From Planctomycetota bacterium (GTDB lineage Bacteria; Planctomycetota; UBA11346): DNA of 64,000 bases. Where the stretch lies: positions 41,691-105,690 of the forward strand of contig JANQLF010000053.1 of NCBI GenBank assembly GCA_028280785.1, given 5' to 3'. Both the position numbers and the translations under genes were made by a program. The notes under the pieces were generated by a model. It saw only the letters and a list, made by a program, of their open reading frames with translations, made no database searches and was not told where the DNA came from. Each line of letters opens with the position of its first letter. The stretch's first letter is position 1. Shown here in pieces: positions 2,958 through 45,332 of this stretch.

Positions 2958-2978
2958 TTATTGCTCCTTATAATTCCT

Positions 2979-3000
2979 GCCGTCCGCTTGCGCGGAAGGC
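2979..3000. repeat. GC hairpin in the 5' leader of the four-helix-bundle gene, a reverse-oriented relative of the hairpin family
   Basis: GCCGTCCGC-ttgc-GCGGAAGGC forms a 9-bp stem with one mismatch. It uses the same GTCCGC/GCGGA words as copies A and D. Two further GCA-triloop mini-hairpins follow at 3006-3028. Confidence 0.4.
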
Positions 3001-3109
3001 GTCAAGGCCACGCAGTGCCGCGCAGCGGTTTGCCTTTACGCTTGAGCACATGTGGTAAGGTTGGAATTACTGTGGAGCTGGTTTGGGGTTGGTAAGGGTT
3101 TTTTATTTT

Positions 3110-3404
3110 GAGCCTCGATCCTGGAGCCTTGAACCTCGAGTTTCGAGCCTCGACGTCGATGATCGAAATTCGAGGATCGACGTTCGAACATCGATTTCGA
3201 CATGCGTCTTTCTCCACTGCTTTATCTATAGTGTCGTTTGGAAATTTACTTTAATCCCCTTGCTTAATGCGGACAGGATGTCCGCGGTCCCAGGGACACC
3301 CATTCCACGCCCAAACTGTAATTTTAAATACCGATATACTTTTTACGTATGTCGATATCGAGGCTCTAGGATCGACGCTCCAGAATCTAAAGTCAAAGCT
3401 CTAG
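3110..3404. repeat. MITE-like repeat element, copy A (heptad arms plus internal hairpin)
   Basis: The left arm (3112-3200) is 13 tandem 7-bp units ending in TNGA. The hairpin GCGGAC-aggat-GTCCGC plus ggTCCCAGgg lies at 3269-3295. The right arm (3351-3404) is a mirror array of units ending in TCNA. Confidence 0.75.
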
Positions 3405-3521
3405 TTACATAAAGTGAAAATTGTACCATTTCCCTCCCCCATTCCCGTCCTCCCACCATAGACACCCAAGTCACAACAATTACCGTAGTCCCGTTGCCTA
3501 TTGACCATTTCTGGAGTCATC

Positions 3522-6371
3522 ATGCCTGTGTTACATATTTTTATTTCCGTACTACTCATCAGTTTTTGTTCGTCATTAAACGCTGCTGAAAATACCGTTG
3601 GCGCCGGTGCTGTAATACTCACACCAATCGCTGACACTTATATCGCCACCTATCCTCCTGGTCGTCGTGATGCGCGGGCTAAGAATAGTGAACAAGGTGG
3701 CAATGCCGGTAAAACACTGCGCTTAAAGATCAAAAAATATGAAAATATTCCACTGTTTAAATTTGATTTCTCTGCAATCCCTAAAGGCGCAACCATAAAC
3801 AAGGCCTATATCGACATAAAATTAATGAATGGTGCACAACTGAATCAAATAACTGTTTCTTCTATACATGCCGATTGGAATGAAGGCAACGGCACTTTTG
3901 ATGATGGTAAAAATTACGATCTCAATCATGAGGGCGCCTGTTTATTTGGTCCAAAAGGAATCAACTCTAGCTGGCGCTCATTTGCTAACAGTGATTTTTA
4001 TTTCATGTATAATGGCGAAGGCGGCAGTGCGATGCGCATTGTAAAAGCCACCATGCTGGATGACGGCACGTGTCGCATCCCGGTTGATCCCTACGTCCTG
4101 CATGCAGCGATAGAAAATGGTTCTAGTTTAGCGTTCACTGACCACACCGCTACGTTTACCGGTGATGGCGCGAACATTTTTTTCCATTCTCGTGAAGTTG
4201 CTGGCAAGGAACCAAAACTCACGGTAACATGGTCAATGTCTAAAGATCAAAGCGCACCTGCATTTAAAAGTATAGCTCTAGCCGAGGCTGGACCTGTTCC
4301 AGGTAGCATTCGCCTTGCATTACCAGCCGCTGGCGATGATGGCGATAAAGGTACGGCCTTAGGTTACCGCGTATGGGTTAACGATAAACAAATCCCTGTA
4401 GTTGATTTACCACGTCCGCAACGCATTTGGCGCAATTGCATATTAGAAGGCTTCGAACCTAGTGCGGCACTAGCCATTAAAATAGAAGCTTTCGATGAAG
4501 CGAATAATACCTGCACCACAACTATCACCACCAAAAGCACTGGCGCTTTTACCGGCGCACTGGCAGATGCATTGGCCGATCAAAACGCAGAAGGACAAAA
4601 GGTTTCTTCTGCTGATTTTTCGGCTCAATTAATTGATGGCATGACCTTAATTAATCCACTGACCGGTACGCTCTCAGTGAAACAGCAGCGCGGCAAAGGT
4701 CTGCTGCCGATCAAGCGTTTCGGTGCTGTCAAAGGTGAAGCCGTTGGTCTGCAATGTTTGATTAATGCAAAAACCCCGCAACAAGGCCTACGCATCAGTG
4801 CCAGCGACTTAAAAAATGATAAGCATCTTATTCCAGCGAGTCAGATTGAATTCTTTAACGAAGTCTATGTCAAAATGGAAAACAATTGGATAGCGGATAT
4901 TTTACCACAATTAAACGCAGGCGACACCTTCTCAATTCCAAGTCAAAAAGACCTCAGCACACAACAAGCGCATTGCATTTATATTGATGTATGGGTGCCT
5001 AAAACAGCTGCCGCTGGTCTTTACGCTGGTACCATCACGGTTCAGTCCTCAGAGGAAACTATTGAATTACCGTTAGAAATCATGGTTCGCGACATCACCT
5101 TACCGGATGAGTTAAGTTTTACCGTTGAGATGAATGCGTATGGACACAGTAGCGATAAAAAAGTTTTCCATGAAACCTATCGCCTCTGCCATAAACATCG
5201 TTTGAGTTACAATGTGCTTGGTTACGGCCACTGGAACCCACGATCTAAAACGACGCCTGTTTTAAATAGTGATGCCAATCCTGATATCGCTGCCAAAGAT
5301 GTGAAGATAACGGATTGGTCGGTATACGACGAGTTTTATGGTCCGATATTCAGCGGAGCTTTGACCAAGGACCTGCCACGCGCAGGCATCCCAGCAACAC
5401 ATTGGTACCTCCCTTTTCAAAGCTCATGGCCTTATTTACTCGAAAAATGCAATCCACATTTATGGAAAAGCCGCGTTAAACCAAATGACGATAAAAAAGC
5501 CTATATTGCATGGGAACAGTATCTTGCTGAAAATGACCTCATGTTTGACGATCACCTAAGCGCTGATTGGCATCTGGTGAATAAAAATGTTGCCCAGCAA
5601 TTTAAAGATCACTTTAAAGAAAAAGGCTGGACGAAAACCAAGATGCAAATTTTCGATAATCATAAAATGTATTTTGCTTCGGGCAGTCGCAGCTTATGGG
5701 TGATGGATGAACCGCGTTATGGGCGCGATTACGAAGCGCTTGCTGGCATCTACAAAGCACATGAGTCCTATCTAGGTGGCGGCTCTATTAACACGCAAAT
5801 GCGCGCCGATATTTCTACACCACAAAAAATGGGTATGTTTATGGACGGCGGCATGGATGAAGTCGTCGTCTCGTCGGCCATCAATTTATACAGCGCTTAT
5901 TTGCGCAATTATAATTCAGCGAATGGAACTACGCTGTGGTGGTACGGCGGTGGCTCCGAAGCTGATAACGATCCAGCTGCAGTGATTGCCTTATTCACCA
6001 ATAAATGGTCACTCGGCTGCGTTGGTGGTATGCCAGTCTACACCAGCTTTGCCGGATCAAATGATTGGACTAAATCACATCGTCTGCGTGTCGTTCGCTT
6101 TGCTGAAGGCAGTGGTTTACCAGTAGCCAGTTTCCGCATGAAAGCTTATCGCCGTGCCCAACAGGACATGGAGTTGTTTAATTTGCTCGCGCAGAAAGAT
6201 GGATTCAATCGCTGGCACGTCGCTGATCTCATTAACAAAGAAGTTGTTTTAAAAATGACCACTATTTCTACGCGTCCAGACGATCCTGGCTATTCAACAT
6301 TTGAAGGTTTAGATCTTGCTAATTTTGATGCACTGCGGGAAAAGGTTGTTGCTACTTTGTTGGCTAAGTAG
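3522..6371 (+). CDS. Large secreted protein, possibly a glycan-active enzyme (DUF4091/GH123-like C-terminal half, tentative)
   Basis: The ATG at 3522 has a GGAG 5 nt upstream; the ORF-track start at 3501 is a TTG. A signal peptide is present (MPVLHIFISVLLISFCSSLNA/AE). The N-terminal region looks beta-sandwich-like, and an FN3-like segment lies near residues 250-340. The family call is only a weak recollection. Confidence 0.7.
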   Translation: MPVLHIFISVLLISFCSSLNAAENTVGAGAVILTPIADTYIATYPPGRRDARAKNSEQGGNAGKTLRLKIKKYENIPLFKFDFSAIPKGATINKAYIDIKLMNGAQLNQITVSSIHADWNEGNGTFDDGKNYDLNHEGACLFGPKGINSSWRSFANSDFYFMYNGEGGSAMRIVKATMLDDGTCRIPVDPYVLHAAIENGSSLAFTDHTATFTGDGANIFFHSREVAGKEPKLTVTWSMSKDQSAPAFKSIALAEAGPVPGSIRLALPAAGDDGDKGTALGYRVWVNDKQIPVVDLPRPQRIWRNCILEGFEPSAALAIKIEAFDEANNTCTTTITTKSTGAFTGALADALADQNAEGQKVSSADFSAQLIDGMTLINPLTGTLSVKQQRGKGLLPIKRFGAVKGEAVGLQCLINAKTPQQGLRISASDLKNDKHLIPASQIEFFNEVYVKMENNWIADILPQLNAGDTFSIPSQKDLSTQQAHCIYIDVWVPKTAAAGLYAGTITVQSSEETIELPLEIMVRDITLPDELSFTVEMNAYGHSSDKKVFHETYRLCHKHRLSYNVLGYGHWNPRSKTTPVLNSDANPDIAAKDVKITDWSVYDEFYGPIFSGALTKDLPRAGIPATHWYLPFQSSWPYLLEKCNPHLWKSRVKPNDDKKAYIAWEQYLAENDLMFDDHLSADWHLVNKNVAQQFKDHFKEKGWTKTKMQIFDNHKMYFASGSRSLWVMDEPRYGRDYEALAGIYKAHESYLGGGSINTQMRADISTPQKMGMFMDGGMDEVVVSSAINLYSAYLRNYNSANGTTLWWYGGGSEADNDPAAVIALFTNKWSLGCVGGMPVYTSFAGSNDWTKSHRLRVVRFAEGSGLPVASFRMKAYRRAQQDMELFNLLAQKDGFNRWHVADLINKEVVLKMTTISTRPDDPGYSTFEGLDLANFDALREKVVATLLAK

Positions 6372-6610
6372 AGCTTCGATTTTAGATCTTTGAGCCTAGA
6401 ACGTCGAACCTTGATGTCGAGGATCGACATTCGATAGGCGTTTAAAATATTTGTAAATTCTCAGTTCTACTCGCCATTTTAAAAGTATTCCTAGTTAGTG
6501 CCGATTCGGAGATCGGCGATCCAGACACTTATACACTTGCATTACTTTTCGTATATGTCGATGTCGAAGTTCTAGGATCAAGGCTTGAAAGTCGAAAATC
6601 TAATCTCAAG
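6371..6610. repeat. MITE-like repeat element, copy B
   Basis: The left arm (6373-6434) is nine heptads: gcttcga ttttaga tctttga gcctaga acgtcga accttga tgtcga ggatcga cattcga. The hairpin GCCGAT-tcggag-ATCGGC plus gaTCCAGac lies at 6500-6526. The right arm (6557-6610) is colinear with the right arm of copy A. Confidence 0.75.
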
Positions 6611-6612
6611 GG

Positions 6613-6840
6613 TTAATAATCATCACATAAATACAATGATAATGGCATTGTTATTGGAGCAGTCAGCAATCCAACTAAAATAAAGAATGCAAATAGAATT
6701 GTCATTAATGGATAACGAAAAACACCAAATCCAGCAAACGTTTCATGAACGTCTTTTCTATATTTTGGACTCATCAGGTAGTACCACATCGGGCAACCAT
6801 AAGTTATCAGCTCGAACAAATTTAAGATCCCAAGTAACAT
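6613..6840 (-). CDS. Small membrane protein (hypothetical)
   Basis: 75-aa hydrophobic ORF lying between repeat copies B and C. There is no other support. Confidence 0.35.
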   Translation of the reverse strand: MLLGILNLFELITYGCPMWYYLMSPKYRKDVHETFAGFGVFRYPLMTILFAFFILVGLLTAPITMPLSLYLCDDY

Positions 6841-6915: not shown

Positions 6916-6979
6916 GCGAGTAAGGACTCGCGTCCTCGGGAATATCGAGGCTCTAGGATCGAGGCTCGAACATCGATTT
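6916..6979. repeat. Condensed partial copy C of the repeat element
   Basis: GCGAGT-aagg-ACTCGC plus gTCCTCGGg is followed directly by five heptads: atatcga ggctcta ggatcga ggctcga acatcga. Confidence 0.6.
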
Positions 6980-7636
6980 AAACTTCTCCAAATTCATCGG
7001 CACCCGCCCCTGCTCATCAACCTGAAACCAATGCGCTCCACTCTCAGTACAAAATTCGCCATCTTCGCGTTTATGATTACCTATATGCAAGACTTCCGCG
7101 GCTGAACATTTCATCGTCTCGCAAATCGTTTCCATTATGCGGGTATCAGGTTTAGCCATGCCCATTTCGGCACTAATAAACATACGTTCGAAATAAACAT
7201 CGAGCTTTAAATCGGCAAGGATACCACGCACCCGTTCATCGAAGTTTGAACACACAACCAACGGAATTTTTTGCGATTGCACAAACGCGAGCATCTCATG
7301 AACATTGTCGAGCACATACCAATGCTCACCTTTACCAAATCCGTAAAACAAATCATCACAAAATGCTTCACTGACTTGAAGATTATGAGCTAATAAAAAA
7401 GTATAGCGAATAACTTGGTGCCAGAAATGTCGCGCGTCGGCTTGTGTCTTACCGTAAGCCAATTGGCACTCGCGCCGTGCTTTCATAAAGCCGGGTTTGA
7501 ATTGTGCGCCAATTGCCGCAGCTTCGACCTGATAACCATGGCCCTGTGCATAGCTGGCATAAATTTCACCGACGGATGGCTGTGGTAAAATCAGGGTCCC
7601 ATGCACATCACAGCTAACGACCTGTATCTTTGGCAT
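6953..7636 (-). CDS. HAD-IA family hydrolase (REG-2/HDHD3-like)
   Basis: Motif I is SCDVHGTLI. I place the start at the ATG 7636-7634 (MPKIQVV) rather than the ORF-track start at 7705. The last codons and the stop lie inside repeat copy C. Confidence 0.75.
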   Translation of the reverse strand: MPKIQVVSCDVHGTLILPQPSVGEIYASYAQGHGYQVEAAAIGAQFKPGFMKARRECQLAYGKTQADARHFWHQVIRYTFLLAHNLQVSEAFCDDLFYGFGKGEHWYVLDNVHEMLAFVQSQKIPLVVCSNFDERVRGILADLKLDVYFERMFISAEMGMAKPDTRIMETICETMKCSAAEVLHIGNHKREDGEFCTESGAHWFQVDEQGRVPMNLEKFKSMFEPRS

Positions 7637-7776
7637 GGTTTTATGATTCCGACAAATTGAAATGGAGAAAGTGTCCGGTTTGACATAAGTCTTGCATCTC
7701 TTCATTCACCCAGCAGGATAAGTGCATAATGATTAATAAATATTCTTTTGTTTGTTCACGAAAAATGCATTGGACC

Positions 7777-8608: not shown

Positions 8609-9667
8609 TCATTTTCCATAGGGAGGCAGCAAACGACGGAAACCGTGCAATAAAACAATAATCAGAAATAATATATTTCGGAATGGAATTAATGGCCACG
8701 CATAGCCCACCGGCTTAATCGTCTGTGGGTCTTGCGTCCATTCCATTAAGCGGATGGCCGCGCGGTCGAACACAGCTAGACTGCGCGGCCATTCTATTAA
8801 TCCATCCAACCAATCCTGTGGAATAACCGCACTACCATTATCAAGACCAGCAAGTGAGCCAATAATTGCACCGGTGGTATCAACATCACCACCGCAATTC
8901 CAAACTGCCTCAACGCTTGCTTTAAAATCACCGCGATGTTTTAAGAACGCACAAATAACAATCGGCACCGTGTGCATAACATAACCGCTGATGCCATGTG
9001 CACGTCCCATATTTTGCGCACATTCATCAACACTTTTTCCTTCTTCAACATCGGCTTGTAATTGTGTAATAGCATGCTGCCACACGTATTCGTCACTGCA
9101 GGCAAATAAATCTTGCCACAAGGTCAATTCAGGATCACCACGTACAATCCACGCAGCCATATCAGCAATGGCAATCGCCCCTGCTTCCGCCAATGGATTA
9201 TGATGGGTAATAGCCGTCGATGCTTTAACAAATAAGTGTCGTCGTTCGGTGTCCTCTGCAAACATTGCACCCAATAATGCAACGCGCATTGCTGCGCCAT
9301 TACCGCCGGAATTAACTCCTGCTCGATGAGCGGGCCAACCACACCACAAACGAATAATCGCACGTGCGGTAGCGAGCCCCACGCCTGCTGGCAAACACAC
9401 AAACCACCAACGCAATTTCCAGGCTAATGATTTTTGGAATGCGACGCTGTTACCACCGCTTTTTATTAATGCCTGGGCAACAAATAATGTTTGCTCCGAA
9501 TCATCGCTGATCATACCTCTGCCACAGAAGAGCCGGTGCCGCCAACCTTTTTTCTCATAAAATGCGGCAACACGCTTGCGACTCAAACCTTCGGCAGGCA
9601 AACCGACTGCGTCACCAACAACGCATCCATACAATAAACCACGTAAGTGCTCTTCATTCAGCGGCAT
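8609..9667 (-). CDS. ADP-ribosylglycohydrolase family protein with a hydrophobic C-terminal tail
   Basis: Motifs present: GDAVGLP, SDDSEQT, GNGAAMR and [10 protein letters not shown]. The C-terminus is [20 protein letters not shown]. Confidence 0.85.
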
Positions 9668-10193
9668 TGTTATCGCGTAATTCCTCTAAGGTACGATCAT
9701 AAATTTCGTGATCGTAGCGACTAAAACAGCAACAGATAATGCGCTCTATTGATGCATGTGCGCTCAATTGCGCCAATAATTCACCAAGTGCAATACGGCA
9801 GGCCCGTTCGATCGGAAATCCATAAATACCGGTCGATACACAAGGAAAGGCAATCGAGCTTAATTGATGTTCTCGCATTAATTCACAGGAGCGTCTGTAA
9901 CAGGATAAGAGCAGAGCATCCTCGTCATAAACACCGCCATCCCACACAGGACCTACTGTATGAATGACATGCCGCGCCGGCAAATTGTAGCCAGCCGTTA
10001 TTTTTGCATTACCGGTTTTACAACCATGTAGATCACGACATTCATTAACTAACTCTGGACCAGCGGCGCGATGAATGGCGCCATCAACACCGCCACCACC
10101 GAGCAATGACGAATTCGCCGCATTCACGATCGCATCGACATCAAGTTGACAAATATCCCCTTGTATAATCTGCAATCGATTTTCTGCGCTCAT
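9654..10193 (-). CDS. Macro-domain protein (YmdB-type O-acetyl-ADP-ribose deacetylase-like)
   Basis: Motif GDI...[26 protein letters not shown] is present. It overlaps the downstream ARH gene by 14 nt and the upstream gene in an ATGA arrangement. Confidence 0.9.
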
Positions 10194-21172: not shown

Positions 21173-22152
21173 GCTTCGCACATTTCTGGGTTCTGAGTTT
21201 CATTCCATTATGCATCCTCGCAGCATTTTTACAGCTATGGTGGCGACAACGCATTATCAAACAACAAGCAAGCATTGGCACGACGGCTAAACATTTGTGC
21301 AAGCAGGTCAATACGTTCAGTATGCACTTGCGGTTTTTTGGATCGTGGATCGCCATACTCTTAATTGTTTTTGCTGTTGCTGGGCCCCGTTGGGGAAGTG
21401 GTGAAGTCAAACGCAATGCCACTGGTGCTTATGTTGTTTTTGCTTTGGATTGTAGTCGTTCGATGTTAGCTGAAGACCTCTACCCAAATCGCATGCAGCA
21501 TGCGCATTTTAAAGCACTGGATATTATGAAGGAAAATCCAGAGCATCGTGTAGCGCTTTTACCCTTTGCGCGCATTGCGACCTTACGCACACCATTTACA
21601 GGTGATCACGTTGCCATAGCTGAAATGATAAAAGATTGTGATCCGGATTTATTTCCAGCTAAATTTGGCTATCAAGGAACGGCAATTGGTGAAAGCGTTC
21701 AAGAATCGTGTCGACTTTTACAGGAACATCTCGGTAGCTCTTTAGCCATTGTGGTGCTGAGTGACGGCTCTGATTCGAATAGTGACAGTATCGATGCAGC
21801 GATCGAAGCTGCCAATAAACATGGCGTGCGCATCTACGGTTTATTTTTCGGTGATGAAGATCGTGAAGTCAGCCTGACTATAGATGGTAAAAAACAAATT
21901 ATGAAAGCCGATAAAGGTACCTTGGATAAACTCGCTCTTGAAACCGGCGGTATCAGCGTCAACGCCACTAACGACAACAGTGACATCCTCGCCTTATCGC
22001 AGCATATTCGCACCCATGTGAGCCAAGAAGAATGGGAAGAACGACAGCGCGTTATCGCACTTGAACGTTACCAATTATTTTTAATTCCAGCAATACTCTT
22101 GTTAAGTTTAAGCCTACTCTTACCAAGTCGCAGGACTATTCATTATGCGTAG
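21169..22152 (+). CDS. batB: vWA-domain membrane protein BatB
   Basis: MIDAS motif DCSRSM, a C-terminal TM helix and an ATGA overlap with the upstream stop. Confidence 0.8.
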   Translation: MSFAHFWVLSFIPLCILAAFLQLWWRQRIIKQQASIGTTAKHLCKQVNTFSMHLRFFGSWIAILLIVFAVAGPRWGSGEVKRNATGAYVVFALDCSRSMLAEDLYPNRMQHAHFKALDIMKENPEHRVALLPFARIATLRTPFTGDHVAIAEMIKDCDPDLFPAKFGYQGTAIGESVQESCRLLQEHLGSSLAIVVLSDGSDSNSDSIDAAIEAANKHGVRIYGLFFGDEDREVSLTIDGKKQIMKADKGTLDKLALETGGISVNATNDNSDILALSQHIRTHVSQEEWEERQRVIALERYQLFLIPAILLLSLSLLLPSRRTIHYA

Positions 22153-24103
22153 TCTTCTATTAATTATTTGTTGCTTGGGATTACTGCCTGCTGCTTCCTC
22201 GTGGCAACGCGCAGAAGAAGCAGCGCGCATAGCAGAAACCGACATTCACAATGCCATTGCTCGTTTACAAGATTTATTATTGGATGAGCCTGAGCTTCAT
22301 GTCGCTCACTATAATTTAGCCTGTATTTTACTGAATTATCAATGGCAAGCTGAAGATGATCAGCGTTTTGGCTCGCAAACACGCAAGCTCGCTAAACAAG
22401 CATTAAATATGTCTGAATTGCCAGACATAGACCCACTCGCATTAGCCGCTGAACATTTTCAACGCGCCGTCGCATCACCGGTTAAAAAACTTGCAGCACG
22501 TGCCTGGCATAATTTAGCGCTAGCACGCTATAAACAGGGTCGTTTAGAAGATGCGCTCGCCGCAGCGGTGAAGGCTTGTGAATTATTTCCACAAGAGCAG
22601 GCTTTTTTACAAACGCGCAATGAATTGCGCCGGGTCTTTTTAGAGCGCGCTGATGAAGCACGCCGCAAAGCTGAAGAAGAAGCCAAGCGTTTACGTATTA
22701 TTCAAGCGCCCCTACCTGATGCATTTGAAGGGAAATCTTATACAGCACAGATTCAAGCGAAAGGTGGCGCTGGCGAACCCTATATGTTTAGCCTCGGCGC
22801 TGAACAAACATTACCTGAAGGTTTAAAACTACCTCCCCCTGAACCTACGGCGACAGCTAGTCGAAAAAGGCCTGAATCGATGAGGAATGATACCATAATT
22901 GGTATTCCGAATTCCAACGCAGTCGGTGAACATCAAATTAAATTTATTGTTAAAGACAGCGCCGATGCAACAGATGAGGCTGAGCTATCCATAAAAGTCT
23001 GGCCCAAACCTAAAATCACTACTGAGCACCTGAACGAAGCAATTATTCAACAATCGTATTTAGCTGAACTACATTGCGTAGGTCTTCCCCATCCAACATG
23101 GTTTATTGAGGGACTGCCTAAAGGATTAAAACTGAAGCAAAACACTGGTCCACGAGTGAGCATCGGCGGTACCGCTGAAGAATTGGGCACGTTTACACTC
23201 AATATGACGGTACGAGATGATAAAAACGATTTAATTGCTGTGCATAGTTTGCCATTAGTTGTCAGTGATTCATTCGCGCCTGACACCACTGGTATGCCAC
23301 CAGCAACCGCATGGTCGCCCTATACTCATCAACTCAGTGTGCGTGGGCCCACTCAACAATATAAATATTTCAGCCAAGGCGCTGGAGGATTTACTATAGA
23401 CGAACAAGGTCTCATCGGTGGTACGCCAGAAGAACAGGGTGATGTTGATTTCCCATTAAGCATTAAAGCAGATGACGGACGCGAACGTAGTTTTGTTTTA
23501 CAAATGAAAGTCAATCCGCCCCCCGTCATTGCAGAAGAAGCTGAAATTAAATTAAATATCGGACAATCACTCCAACGAAAATTAAAGGTCGAAGGTGGCA
23601 CAGCACCCTATACCTGGACCTTAGTCGAGGGTTTATTACCTGACGGTGTTCGCTTAGACGAATCGGGCTACATCACTGGAGCAGCAAGCCTCGCTGAAGA
23701 AGCGCCGGTCACCATCGCCGTTGAAGACCGCTGGTCATCGCGTGGCACTAAAGAAATAAAACTCATTTTTGAAGCAAAAGATCCAAATCAACAACAAGAA
23801 CAGCAGGATCAACAGCAGCAAAATCAAGAAAACCAAGAACAAAATCAGGATCAGCAGAACCAAGAAGACCAGGGCCAAAACCAACAGCAAACTGCTGACC
23901 AACAGGAAAATCAAGAAAATCAACAAGAGCAAAACGACGCACAAGCCGCACAGCAAGAAGCACAGGACCAACAGGAAGGTCAAATAAAACAGGCCGATGT
24001 GCAACGCTGGCTTGATTCACTCCCAGAAGAATCAAAACGCGCTTTGTTAATGCAGTTACTCGATGGCAAACATAATCCGCAGCCGGACAAGGAACCGTGG
24101 TAA
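22145..24103 (+). CDS. batC: BatC-like TPR protein, expanded with four Ig-like (He_PIG-type) repeats and a Q/N/E-rich tail
   Basis: It has a signal peptide and an N-terminal TPR-like region. Four repeats fit the pattern ...Y...L...GG..PY.W.L..GLP.GL.L...G.I.G. A low-complexity tail lies near residues 545-615. Confidence 0.65.
   Translation: MRSLLLIICCLGLLPAASSWQRAEEAARIAETDIHNAIARLQDLLLDEPELHVAHYNLACILLNYQWQAEDDQRFGSQTRKLAKQALNMSELPDIDPLALAAEHFQRAVASPVKKLAARAWHNLALARYKQGRLEDALAAAVKACELFPQEQAFLQTRNELRRVFLERADEARRKAEEEAKRLRIIQAPLPDAFEGKSYTAQIQAKGGAGEPYMFSLGAEQTLPEGLKLPPPEPTATASRKRPESMRNDTIIGIPNSNAVGEHQIKFIVKDSADATDEAELSIKVWPKPKITTEHLNEAIIQQSYLAELHCVGLPHPTWFIEGLPKGLKLKQNTGPRVSIGGTAEELGTFTLNMTVRDDKNDLIAVHSLPLVVSDSFAPDTTGMPPATAWSPYTHQLSVRGPTQQYKYFSQGAGGFTIDEQGLIGGTPEEQGDVDFPLSIKADDGRERSFVLQMKVNPPPVIAEEAEIKLNIGQSLQRKLKVEGGTAPYTWTLVEGLLPDGVRLDESGYITGAASLAEEAPVTIAVEDRWSSRGTKEIKLIFEAKDPNQQQEQQDQQQQNQENQEQNQDQQNQEDQGQNQQQTADQQENQENQQEQNDAQAAQQEAQDQQEGQIKQADVQRWLDSLPEESKRALLMQLLDGKHNPQPDKEPW
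23770..23990 (+). repeat. Low-complexity coding repeat (CAA/CAG/GAA/AAT-rich) encoding the Q/N/E/D tract of BatC
   Basis: The tract reads DPNQQQEQQDQQQQNQENQEQNQDQQNQEDQGQNQQQTADQQENQENQQEQND. Confidence 0.8.
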
Positions 24104-44426: not shown

Positions 44427-44468
44427 ATAGTTTTTGGTTCTTAGTTTTTGGTAATTGGTTATTGGTTT

Positions 44469-45332
44469 TTAGATCGCGCGCACTTCTTCGACATCTTTTT
44501 TTATTTGCGCCGCTAATGCATCGATGCCGTTAAATTTCTGTTCATCGCGAATGCGCTGTAGCCATTCAATCCGCAAGGTCTGATCATAACAATCACCCGA
44601 CCAATCTAATATATGTGCCTCGACACTTAACGGGCGATCATCGCCGATACTTGGTAAGTGCCCAACATTAATAGCAGCACGTAATTTGTAATTGTCTAAA
44701 TAAACATCCGCAGCATAGACTCCAGTTGCTGGAATTACATTTTCAATATTTTGAATATTCGCTGTTGGAAATCCAATGTGTTGACCACGTCCATCGCCGC
44801 GTAGTACGATGCCGGCATTAACATAGGGTCTTCCCAATAAACGAGCAGCTAATGCACAATCACCTGCTTCAATGGCTTGACGAATGCGACTCGATGATGC
44901 CTGCTCTCCATCAATGCTCACTAGGGGTACGGTCTCAACTGCAAACTTAAATTGTTCGCCCAATGTTTTCAGTGTCCTTACATCACCACTGCGCTTAAAA
45001 CCAAAGCGAAAATTCTCACCCGTCACCATTGCGGCAATGTCAAATCGTTCTTGTAAATATTCGATAAATGCTGGCGGCTGTAAATTGCGCACGTCCGCGA
45101 ATGACACTTCAATAATTTCTATGTTCTGCCCAATTTCTTGTGACCATGATTGCAAGACGCGTTGACGCTCATCATCGGTTAATAAGGGCTTACGCTCTTC
45201 CCAACCAAGCACGACGGCCATACCCGAAAAGCTGAGCAAAGCTCCTTGCCCATGGGCACAAGCGGTATCGATTAATGCACGATGACCAAGATGCAGTGCA
45301 TCGAATTTTCCTATTGCCAGAGAAAACGCCAT
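44469..45332 (-). CDS. ribF: Bifunctional riboflavin kinase / FAD synthetase
   Basis: Motifs GKFDALHLGHRALI and GDGRGQHIGFPTANI are present. Confidence 0.88.
   Translation of the reverse strand: MAFSLAIGKFDALHLGHRALIDTACAHGQGALLSFSGMAVVLGWEERKPLLTDDERQRVLQSWSQEIGQNIEIIEVSFADVRNLQPPAFIEYLQERFDIAAMVTGENFRFGFKRSGDVRTLKTLGEQFKFAVETVPLVSIDGEQASSSRIRQAIEAGDCALAARLLGRPYVNAGIVLRGDGRGQHIGFPTANIQNIENVIPATGVYAADVYLDNYKLRAAINVGHLPSIGDDRPLSVEAHILDWSGDCYDQTLRIEWLQRIRDEQKFNGIDALAAQIKKDVEEVRAI

Follow-up and report, generated by a model that had tools for sequence, protein, structure and literature searches.

Heptad arrays beside a PF05635 gene in a Planctomycetota bacterium: probable repeat arms of a cassette family resembling rRNA intervening sequences

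What are the inverted arrays of 7-bp units that surround a hairpin at 3108-3403 of a 64,000-nucleotide stretch of DNA from a Planctomycetota bacterium (contig JANQLF010000053.1; the whole stretch is referred to here as the window)? An earlier note on this DNA had proposed a non-autonomous element resembling a miniature inverted-repeat transposable element (MITE). Our analysis indicates that the locus, here called element A, is a real module, best described as part of a cassette family that is associated with PF05635 genes and resembles the intervening sequences (IVSs) of rRNA genes, rather than as a MITE. On this reading, to which we assign a probability of roughly 0.6, the arrays are the repeat arms of a selfish, IVS-like cassette or module family that travels with PF05635 genes. 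The decisive context, which was not in the earlier note, is the neighbouring PF05635 gene, a member of a family that is generally flanked by inverted heptamer arrays.

Heptad arrays and hairpins in the window

Five degenerate heptad arrays are present. We use Y for arrays of TNGA units with C-rich spacers (Y1, 3108-3200; Y2, 6369-6434), R for arrays of TCNA units with G- or purine-rich spacers (R1, 3352-3403; R2, 6558-6609; R3, 6945-6976) and H for the hairpin. Together with the hairpin copies, all of them are confined to 2.58-6.98 kb of the window. A chain detector, requiring at least five units at 7-bp or 6-bp spacing, at least three of them TCGA, returned exactly these five arrays from the 64 kb and none from 200 first-order Markov simulations. 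TCGA as such is not unusual over the window as a whole, with 320 occurrences observed against 243 expected.

The left arm of element A, Y1, consists of 14 TNGA units, which start at 3108, 3115, 3122, 3129, 3136, 3143, 3150, 3156, 3163, 3170, 3177, 3184, 3191 and 3197, giving successive spacings of 7, 7, 7, 7, 7, 7, 6, 7, 7, 7, 7, 7 and 6 bp. The left arm of consecutive heptad units described in the earlier note is thus real, although its count of 13 has to be raised by one, the TTGA at 3108 also fitting the pattern; the 11 TCGA that it counted in this stretch (3115, 3136 and on to 3197) are all there. The spacers are C-rich in the outer half and mixed in the inner half, and Y1 is predicted to self-fold around CGACGTCG at -39 kcal/mol. 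Read on the minus strand, Y1 is a G-rich array, with spacers GGC, GGT and GGA, lying 5' of the gene for a four-helix-bundle protein. Two Logan contigs (sample SRR20820735) terminate within Y1 with a 19-nt overlap (3145-3163), the near-palindromic array breaking short-read assembly; because Y1 is itself a near-palindrome, this break is unusable as a sign of extra copies.

The right arm, R1, likewise agrees with the earlier description of T-C-N-A units: eight of them, with purine-rich spacers, start at 3352, 3358, 3365, 3372, 3379, 3386, 3393 and 3400 (spacing 6, then 7 bp), and the junction cttttTACGTATGTCGAT precedes them. A second copy, element B, had been announced through a quoted 27-mer, which we located at 6369-6395; its arms are Y2, with ten TNGA units in an order homologous to that of Y1, and R2, with eight TCNA units and abutting the 3' end of a 75-aa minus-strand open reading frame (ORF; 6613-6840). 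The same junction stands 5' of R in both elements. A partial third copy at 6916-6979 comprises a hairpin and a TCNA arm, R3, whose five units overlap the 3' end of a HAD hydrolase ORF. When compared with shuffles of whole heptad units, unit order is kept among arrays of the same type (z 5-7 for R1, R2 and R3; z 4.8 for Y1 and Y2). Since unit order is kept between them, arrays of one type are copies of one another and not independent low-complexity sequence.

The hairpin motif was defined by a GC-rich stem of 6 bp, a loop containing GGA and a TCC no more than 8 nt beyond the stem. Four copies, starting at 2587, 3269, 6500 and 6916, are present, all of them on the plus strand, and nothing similar is found elsewhere in the window. 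The four stems (CGGACG, GCGGACA, GCCGAT and GCGAGT) differ from one another, yet all pair, so that the changes are compensating. H0 (2587-2612; CGGACG-tgga-CGTCCG, then cgTTCCCAG) is a solo hairpin copy directly 3' of the four-helix-bundle gene; in the minus-strand direction it resembles a terminator, with a stem and then AATAGATTTT. The remaining copies are H1 (3269-3298; GCGGACA-gga-TGTCCGC, then ggTCCCAGGG), H2 (6500-6526; GCCGAT-tcggag-ATCGGC, then gaTCCAGAC) and H3 (6916-6941; GCGAGT-aagg-ACTCGC, then gTCCTCGGG). In each of the two full copies, 65-70 nt separate Y from H.

On the plus strand the order is H0, the four-helix-bundle gene (minus), Y1, H1 with R1, a GH123-like gene (plus), Y2, H2 with R2, the 75-aa ORF (minus), H3 with R3, and the HAD hydrolase gene (minus). 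On the minus strand the first part therefore reads as the reverse complements of R1 and H1, about 70 nt, the reverse complement of Y1, a leader and the four-helix-bundle gene. These observations support the view that the heptad and hairpin modules are discrete, repeated and non-coding rather than local low complexity. In this respect the element proposed earlier stands, with further copies and a kept unit order, but within the DNA covered here it is not dispersed: the copies, about three and a half, all lie within 4.4 kb in one orientation, and there were none in the remaining 57 kb of the window or in roughly 10 kb of further sequence obtained from that sample.

A coding reading of the arrays (ORFs 3036-3203, minus, and 3083-3412, plus) was rejected. 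These ORFs are by-products of the repeat, because its period is 7 and not 3 and because the peptide KSMFE(R/P)RS arises wherever an array is read. Apart from the five arrays, the window has a single period-7 tandem repeat (44428-44479), GTTATTG / TAGTTTTTGGTTAT in about 3 to 5 copies, where the riboflavin kinase/FAD synthetase gene has its 3' end; this repeat is not of the TCGA type and is without the hairpin module.

The four-helix-bundle gene and its relatives

The gene that follows Y1 on the minus strand (2619-2957) encodes a 112-aa protein which matches PF05635 (23S_rRNA_IVP) and TIGR02436 with E values of 6.6e-22 and 4.4e-22. Its profile also matches PDB entry 2GSC (E 5.9e-19), the only relative with a solved structure; the entry is deposited as five chains and is called a homopentameric toroid in PMC4990558, which cites Lin et al. 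2006. Identity to the nearest homologous proteins, P0002 and P0003, is 81-82%. The start codon is 153 nt from Y1, on the upstream side of the gene, which places a period-7 array of the G-rich type upstream and within about 350 nt of a PF05635 ORF. Between the two lies a conserved leader of about 110 nt (2958-3070, minus strand) that aligns with the leaders of Planctomycetota homologues and carries the motifs GTGCTC..., GGCCTTGAC, GCGCGCGA and AAGGAGC-N-ATG. Its predicted fold has 29 pairs, nine of them with compensatory changes, and it could be a structured 5' untranslated region or a promoter block. The leader, as GTGCTCGCCGTCAAGGC ... GGCCTTGAC ... GCGCGCGA ... AAGGAGC, was also seen at ten other loci (L157, L158, L159, L160, L162, L164, L165, L166, L171 and L186) and is not in Rfam.

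The closest homologues with readable DNA carry TCGA heptads. At L298 (59% identity) TCGA-type heptads stand on both sides of the gene, as tcga-aag-type units upstream and as TCGActaTCGActaTCGA downstream, where they run into the contig end; at L300 (57%) the heptads TCGAtcgTCGAaccTCGAtttTCGA are found about 200 nt upstream. In L299 and L301/L302 (51-52%) two or three tandem modules stand upstream of the gene and in its orientation, each consisting of a CTGGGA-N-CGC hairpin whose loop has TCC, a gap of about 65 nt, an array of TCNA heptads, one of TNGA heptads and two small hairpins, and the conserved leader and ATG come after the modules. The L299 hairpin GGATCGCCGATCTCCGAATCGGCA is the reverse complement of H2, identical over 24 nt, and L299 is an unrelated metagenome contig. 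The window modules are homologous to modules beside a related PF05635 gene, L299 repeating their order of hairpin, about 65 nt, heptads, leader and gene. A Brocadiaceae metagenome-assembled genome (MAG) holds at least 12 copies of the PF05635 gene, many of them where a contig ends; six have sufficient sequence upstream, and these share C-rich heptads, the TCC-loop hairpin and the leader and show further compensating stem variants.

In order to survey the family more widely, we collected 139 homologous loci, 59 from the genome collection and 80 from metagenomes. Period-7 arrays, scored where the lag-7 identity over 42 nt reached 0.69 or more (the window's own degenerate arrays fall short of this), adjoin the PF05635 ORF in 35 of the 139 loci, as against 0 of 183 control regions taken more than 700 nt away. 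Within 350 nt of the gene they were found upstream in 25/127 loci and downstream in 20/134. Lags of 5, 6 and 10 gave none, and lag 8 gave 8 and 9. Comparison of the upstream flank with the reverse complement of the downstream flank exceeded the 99th percentile of permuted pairs in 61 of 110 loci, whereas the direct-orientation control did so in 13. The period of the inverted-repeat arms was 7 in 25 loci, 8 in five, 6 in two, 9 in one and unclear in 28. Upstream arms are rich in G (0.30, with C at 0.19), and the median arm is 31 nt long, or about 4-5 units. In the wider family, then, two array types bracket the four-helix-bundle ORF in the order R - ORF - Y.

The heptad itself varies by lineage (gtttcga/gtttcaa, gttcaag, ggtttag, aatcgaa, gtctcag, gtcgcca, gtaggcg and others), and annotated carriers belong to at least seven phyla or candidate phyla, among them Acidobacteriota, Planctomycetota, Actinomycetota, Gemmatimonadota, Caldiserica, Kiritimatiellia and Bacteroidota. 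TCGA-type arrays specifically were present in only one of the first 59 homologous loci, so the link of PF05635 is with heptad periodicity and not with TCGA as such. At one locus, L180 of a Terriglobales MAG (1955-2410), a four-helix-bundle gene and inverted AGTTTCR heptad arms exactly fill the spacer between atpG and atpD, one arm beginning 3 nt after the atpG stop and the other ending 4 nt before the atpD start. None of the PADLOC defence models matched significantly; the related bAvd model matches one homologue weakly. A 23S_rRNA_IVP gene has been reported between cmr3 and cmr2 (PMC3936711), and PF05635-family genes have been reported in 16S and 23S rRNA insertions of bacteria of the Candidate Phyla Radiation. 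In the open-access papers that we searched, we found no general account of PF05635 genes bracketed by inverted heptamer arrays, a remark on the heptamers of Coxiella being the nearest to it.

The 23S IVS of Coxiella has an S23p ORF and a stem with 3-4 tandem heptamers (GACAGAT) whose number varies among strains, RNase III cuts at the first heptamer repeat, and the S23p protein is apparently not translated in vivo (PMC4990558). Heptad hairpins also occur without an ORF. In Sporomusa ovata (CP146301), Rfam places the 16S rRNA gene at L062 2570-4304, and TCGA-heptad hairpins lie within it (about 2645-2770), just after it (4320-4460) and after the 5S gene (4680-4760), all in a single rrn operon; they look like small intervening sequences without an ORF. 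The Syntrophales MAG SMAG_U15191 has three near-identical intergenic hairpins with GGNNCGA / TCGATCC heptads on three contigs (L129 3065-3150, L135 990-1075 and L141 3815-3910), a dispersed repeat family without an ORF, and further ORF-less heptad hairpins are found in L095, L080 and L043. The element-specific 18-mer TCGARGYTCTAGGATCRA gave 21 scattered matches in the genome collection, which is about chance level, and only the three in Syntrophales are relevant.

A scan for (TCGANNN)x4-TCGA returned more than 120 matches, roughly 19 of them with varied spacers. Perfect (TCGANNN)n microsatellites of 7 to 20 units are intergenic in Vibrio, Halomonas, Pseudoalteromonas and Enterovibrio (L007, L017, L024, L028, L059, L010 and others), often directly after a terminator hairpin. 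A tblastn search with the four-helix-bundle protein of the window against the first 120 TCGA-microsatellite loci gave no matches; TCGA microsatellites in general are therefore not linked to this gene.

Cassette arms weighed against other explanations

How might such a cassette be built and persist? The module consists of a C-rich TNGA array (Y), a GC-rich GGA-loop hairpin (H) about 65-70 nt further on, and a G- or purine-rich TCNA array (R), and any Y can form a long imperfect duplex with any R. This anatomy, its repetition, the covariation of the hairpins, the homology with modules of other organisms and the statistical tie between heptamer arrays and the gene family are direct results. The R - ORF - Y architecture is the same as that of the stem-and-ORF intervening sequences of 23S rRNA. 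In the subfamily to which the window belongs, modules also stack in tandem upstream of the gene, and in the window they appear to have spread over four neighbouring intergenic spaces, so that the GH123-like gene is bracketed by R1 and Y2 and two other genes end inside or against an array. In transcripts, the arms may fold the insert into a stem-loop that RNase III could process, by analogy with rRNA IVSs (cleavage has been demonstrated for Coxiella); inserts could then sit harmlessly in transcribed intergenic spacers, even inside operons. As the mechanism we infer either a stem processable by RNase III, on the strength of that analogy, or reading of the arrays by the ring-shaped protein.

Which arms are partners bears directly on this reading. 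Aligned with the reverse complement of R1, Y1 gives a z of 1.8, and the duplex energy has a z of -1.5, both relative to shuffles of heptad units. Complementarity resides in the composition of the units, and any Y is therefore predicted to pair with any R at -46 to -57 kcal/mol; Y2 with R3, at -32.6, is the exception. R1 finds its best specific match in Y2 (z -2.7), across a gene of 2.9 kb, so that this pair brackets the GH123-like gene. Since the arms are generically complementary, pairing does not distinguish Y-H-R units from R...Y brackets. The homology with L299, which has R and Y directly side by side, and the match of R1 with Y2 together point to a single hairpin whose two halves have the GH123-like gene between them.

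The same numbers weaken the case for a classical MITE, the interpretation offered first, which would depend on a transposase acting in trans from another part of the genome. Copies of 240-300 bp with inverted arms are indeed repeated, homologous modules exist in another organism, ORF-less heptad hairpins are dispersed in the Syntrophales MAG, and the window has no transposase, as the earlier note had said: no transposase or integrase domain appeared in the 45 of 49 ORFs of at least 150 aa that were scanned. The earlier note had, however, taken a similarity between the arms no better than that of shuffled heptad arrays as evidence against its element, and the arms of A, which it saw as imperfect terminal inverted repeats, are only weakly matched (z 1.5-1.8) and are unequal (93 vs 52 bp). 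The target-site duplications that it proposed to look for are absent at A and at B, where direct reading of the flanks (ttttattt / ttacataa for A; ggctaag / ttaataat for B) gave no direct repeat. Moreover, the copies are crowded into 4.4 kb and share one orientation, the gene to which the family is linked is not a transposase gene, and none of the fetched loci showed a related element with a transposase. What survives is a discrete, repeated, non-coding module without a transposase, and we regard the MITE itself as highly improbable. An integron attC site was also considered and rejected: the ends GTTACAT and GTTAATA misfit GTTRRRY (core GTTRRRY / RYYYAAC), and no integrase domain was found.

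Decay of heptanucleotide simple-sequence repeats that arose by replication slippage and have no function of their own is another proposal, heptamers being the commonest long class of such repeats in prokaryotes. It draws on the abundance of heptanucleotide repeats (PMC4679880), on the variable heptamer number among Coxiella strains and on the perfect (TCGANNN)n repeats, which are common in intergenic DNA of many genera and make up 70 of 120 matches. Slippage would not be expected to keep the TCGA core while spacers differ, to conserve unit order between copies or to arrange two complementary array types as inverted pairs; nor does it account for the coupling to a covarying hairpin at a fixed 65-70 nt in both the window and L299, or for the strong enrichment beside one gene family (0/183 in controls). 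We therefore consider it improbable as an account of these arrays.

The arrays might instead be binding sites for a pentameric four-helix-bundle ring that reads heptads on DNA or RNA, for autoregulation or for cassette mobility. The omega repressor on the 7-bp heptad operators of pSM19035, the iteron arrays of ParG/ParR and TRAP on its spaced triplets are parallels. The arrays adjoin the PF05635 gene in a large share of loci, the heptad sequence differs by lineage within a constant architecture, which is what co-evolution of protein and site would produce, and the median arm of 31 nt has about 4-5 units. In addition, 2GSC has five chains and is described as a toroidal homopentamer (PMC4990558), and the weak match of bAvd to a homologue points the same way. 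The earlier note had remarked that such an array resembles the targets of ring-shaped oligomers, and its agreement with the pentameric 2GSC is an interesting coincidence. Arrays are found, however, without a nearby four-helix-bundle gene (copies B and C of the window, Syntrophales, and the Sporomusa rRNA hairpins), S23p of Coxiella is apparently untranslated in vivo (PMC4990558), and the strand asymmetry of the arms is unexpected for a symmetric operator on double-stranded DNA. Binding of this kind seems to us unlikely, though less so than slippage.

Returning to the preferred reading, that of cassette arms, several results weigh against it. The four-helix-bundle gene of the window is not bracketed, having an array upstream only and H0 downstream, and the enclosure of the ORF by arms, seen in the wider family, is thus absent here, where the array stands on the 5' side only. 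Pairing between arms is barely better than that of shuffled heptad-unit arrays. Rfam gave no match in the window, either at gathering thresholds or at E values up to 5, so there is no matching family and no rRNA (a tRNA scan of the window was likewise negative). The copy count covers the 64 kb and about 10 kb more, rather than the whole source genome. Among mismatches in 58 inverted-repeat loci, G.U (72) is not in excess over A.C (64), and there is accordingly no signature of selection on pairing of the sense-strand RNA; like the one-sided array, this counts against the RNA-stem mechanism. Finally, the co-orientation of the gene with its neighbours (47 of the 53 cases where both neighbours are on one strand), which speaks for the reading, has an uncertain baseline, since a gene in the middle of three usually shares the strand of the outer two in any case.

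Surroundings, known systems and significance

The genes around the modules are those of an otherwise ordinary chromosome, with MoxR/vWA/Bat operons, TilS, RibF, IlvC, PurB, ComEC and a type IIA topoisomerase pair, and the modules sit between protein-coding genes. The lineage is uncultured and close to Planctomycetota MAGs. The GH123-N-domain protein gene (3522-6371, plus strand) encodes 949 aa if translation begins with the ATG at 3522 (the TTG at 3501 is an alternative start), and its TAG stop is the first triplet of Y2. The possibility that the arrays belong to this gene was rejected, since orthologues at 49-51% identity are without arrays. The HAD hydrolase ORF (6953-7705, minus strand) ends in the residues ...KSMFEPRS*, encoded by R3. 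Beside the array region, at 8609-10193, are adjacent ADP-ribosylglycohydrolase and Macro-domain genes. Further along, a 652-aa ORF for a He_PIG domain protein (22145-24103), which belongs to the MoxR/vWA/BatD operon, contains a low-complexity stretch rich in Gln, Asn and Glu with a period of 9 to 24 nt (23780-23990). Upstream of the window (L142), several small ORFs follow one another on the minus strand, among them those for two ankyrin-repeat proteins, a NUDIX protein and a photolyase. When compared with L293, L296 has at 5990-6720 an extra 161-aa ORF, without a Pfam match, between its GH123-like and leucine-rich-repeat genes; it is flanked by inverted aaccacatagagcacaaagatcacaaag / ctttttgtgctatgtggtt and may be another small cassette.

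Intervening sequences in rRNA genes and their S23p ORFs have been known for more than 30 years; to our knowledge, the origin of the former and the function of the S23p protein are unexplained. The likeness of the window locus to the IVSs of Coxiella burnetii and Leptospira lies in the same protein family and in complementary arms able to pair into a long stem that surrounds or adjoins the ORF. The stem in Coxiella has tandem heptamers (PMC4990558), the 16S IVS of Sporomusa has TCGA-heptad arms, and both systems behave as selfish insertions. Unlike the IVSs, the window modules lie outside rRNA, are stacked and spread over several intergenic spaces, and include a four-helix-bundle gene with a single array, together with the additional conserved hairpin H and the leader.

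With MITEs and with repetitive extragenic palindromic (REP) sequences and their bacterial interspersed mosaic elements (BIMEs), the modules share the character of short, non-coding, hairpin-forming intergenic repeats in several copies without a transposase of their own, and the GC-rich H hairpin with its conserved flanks is REP-like. They differ in having no target-site duplications and only weakly matched arms, which are built of degenerate heptads; no gene for a REP-associated tyrosine transposase or of IS200 type was seen, and the family is linked to the four-helix-bundle gene. The heptanucleotide repeats of cyanobacteria (short tandemly repeated repetitive sequences), the TAACTGA repeats of Beggiatoaceae and those of the Haemophilus hmw promoter also have a 7-nt unit and are intergenic, often near gene starts or ends (PMC4679880). 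Those repeats are direct and near-perfect and use a single unit, whereas the window arrays are degenerate, of two complementary types, placed as inverted pairs, and linked to hairpin and gene.

Other repeat arrays are recognised by proteins: heptad operator or centromere arrays are bound by ribbon-helix-helix proteins such as omega of pSM19035, and rings of the TRAP type bind spaced repeats. What the window locus has in common with these is contiguous 7-bp units with a conserved core beside a gene for a small oligomeric protein, here a putative nucleic-acid-binding one. It differs in that the protein has the four-helix-bundle fold and is predicted to be a pentamer, and in that arrays also occur far from any such gene. 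Overall, heptanucleotide repeats as such are well known, and we regard the locus as an IVS-like element outside rRNA.

A broader proposal, which we put forward as tentative and rather doubtful, is that PF05635 genes are the cargo, and perhaps the driver, of widespread selfish cassettes bounded by inverted heptamer arrays, of which the rRNA IVS would be the special case that landed in rRNA. A pentameric ring would recognise its own heptads as RNA or single-stranded DNA, for spread or for processing, and the ORF-less hairpins of the window, Syntrophales and Sporomusa would be non-autonomous derivatives.

For annotation, the arrays matter in that they break assemblies, extend neighbouring ORFs (as with the HAD protein, which ends in array-encoded residues) and are easily mistaken for MITEs or microsatellites. 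For the predicted ring protein, two hypotheses follow: it may be a reader of the heptads, or a passive cargo carried in a stem processed by RNase III. For the family, the survey indicates that PF05635 genes outside rRNA are often bracketed by inverted 7-nt arrays (61/110 loci) in at least seven phyla or candidate phyla, that a spacer within an essential operon (atpG-atpD) can be filled by such a cassette, and that ORF-less heptad hairpins form dispersed families. What had been a curiosity of rRNA genes would in this way become a general class of insertion element, with an architecture that is defined and searchable.

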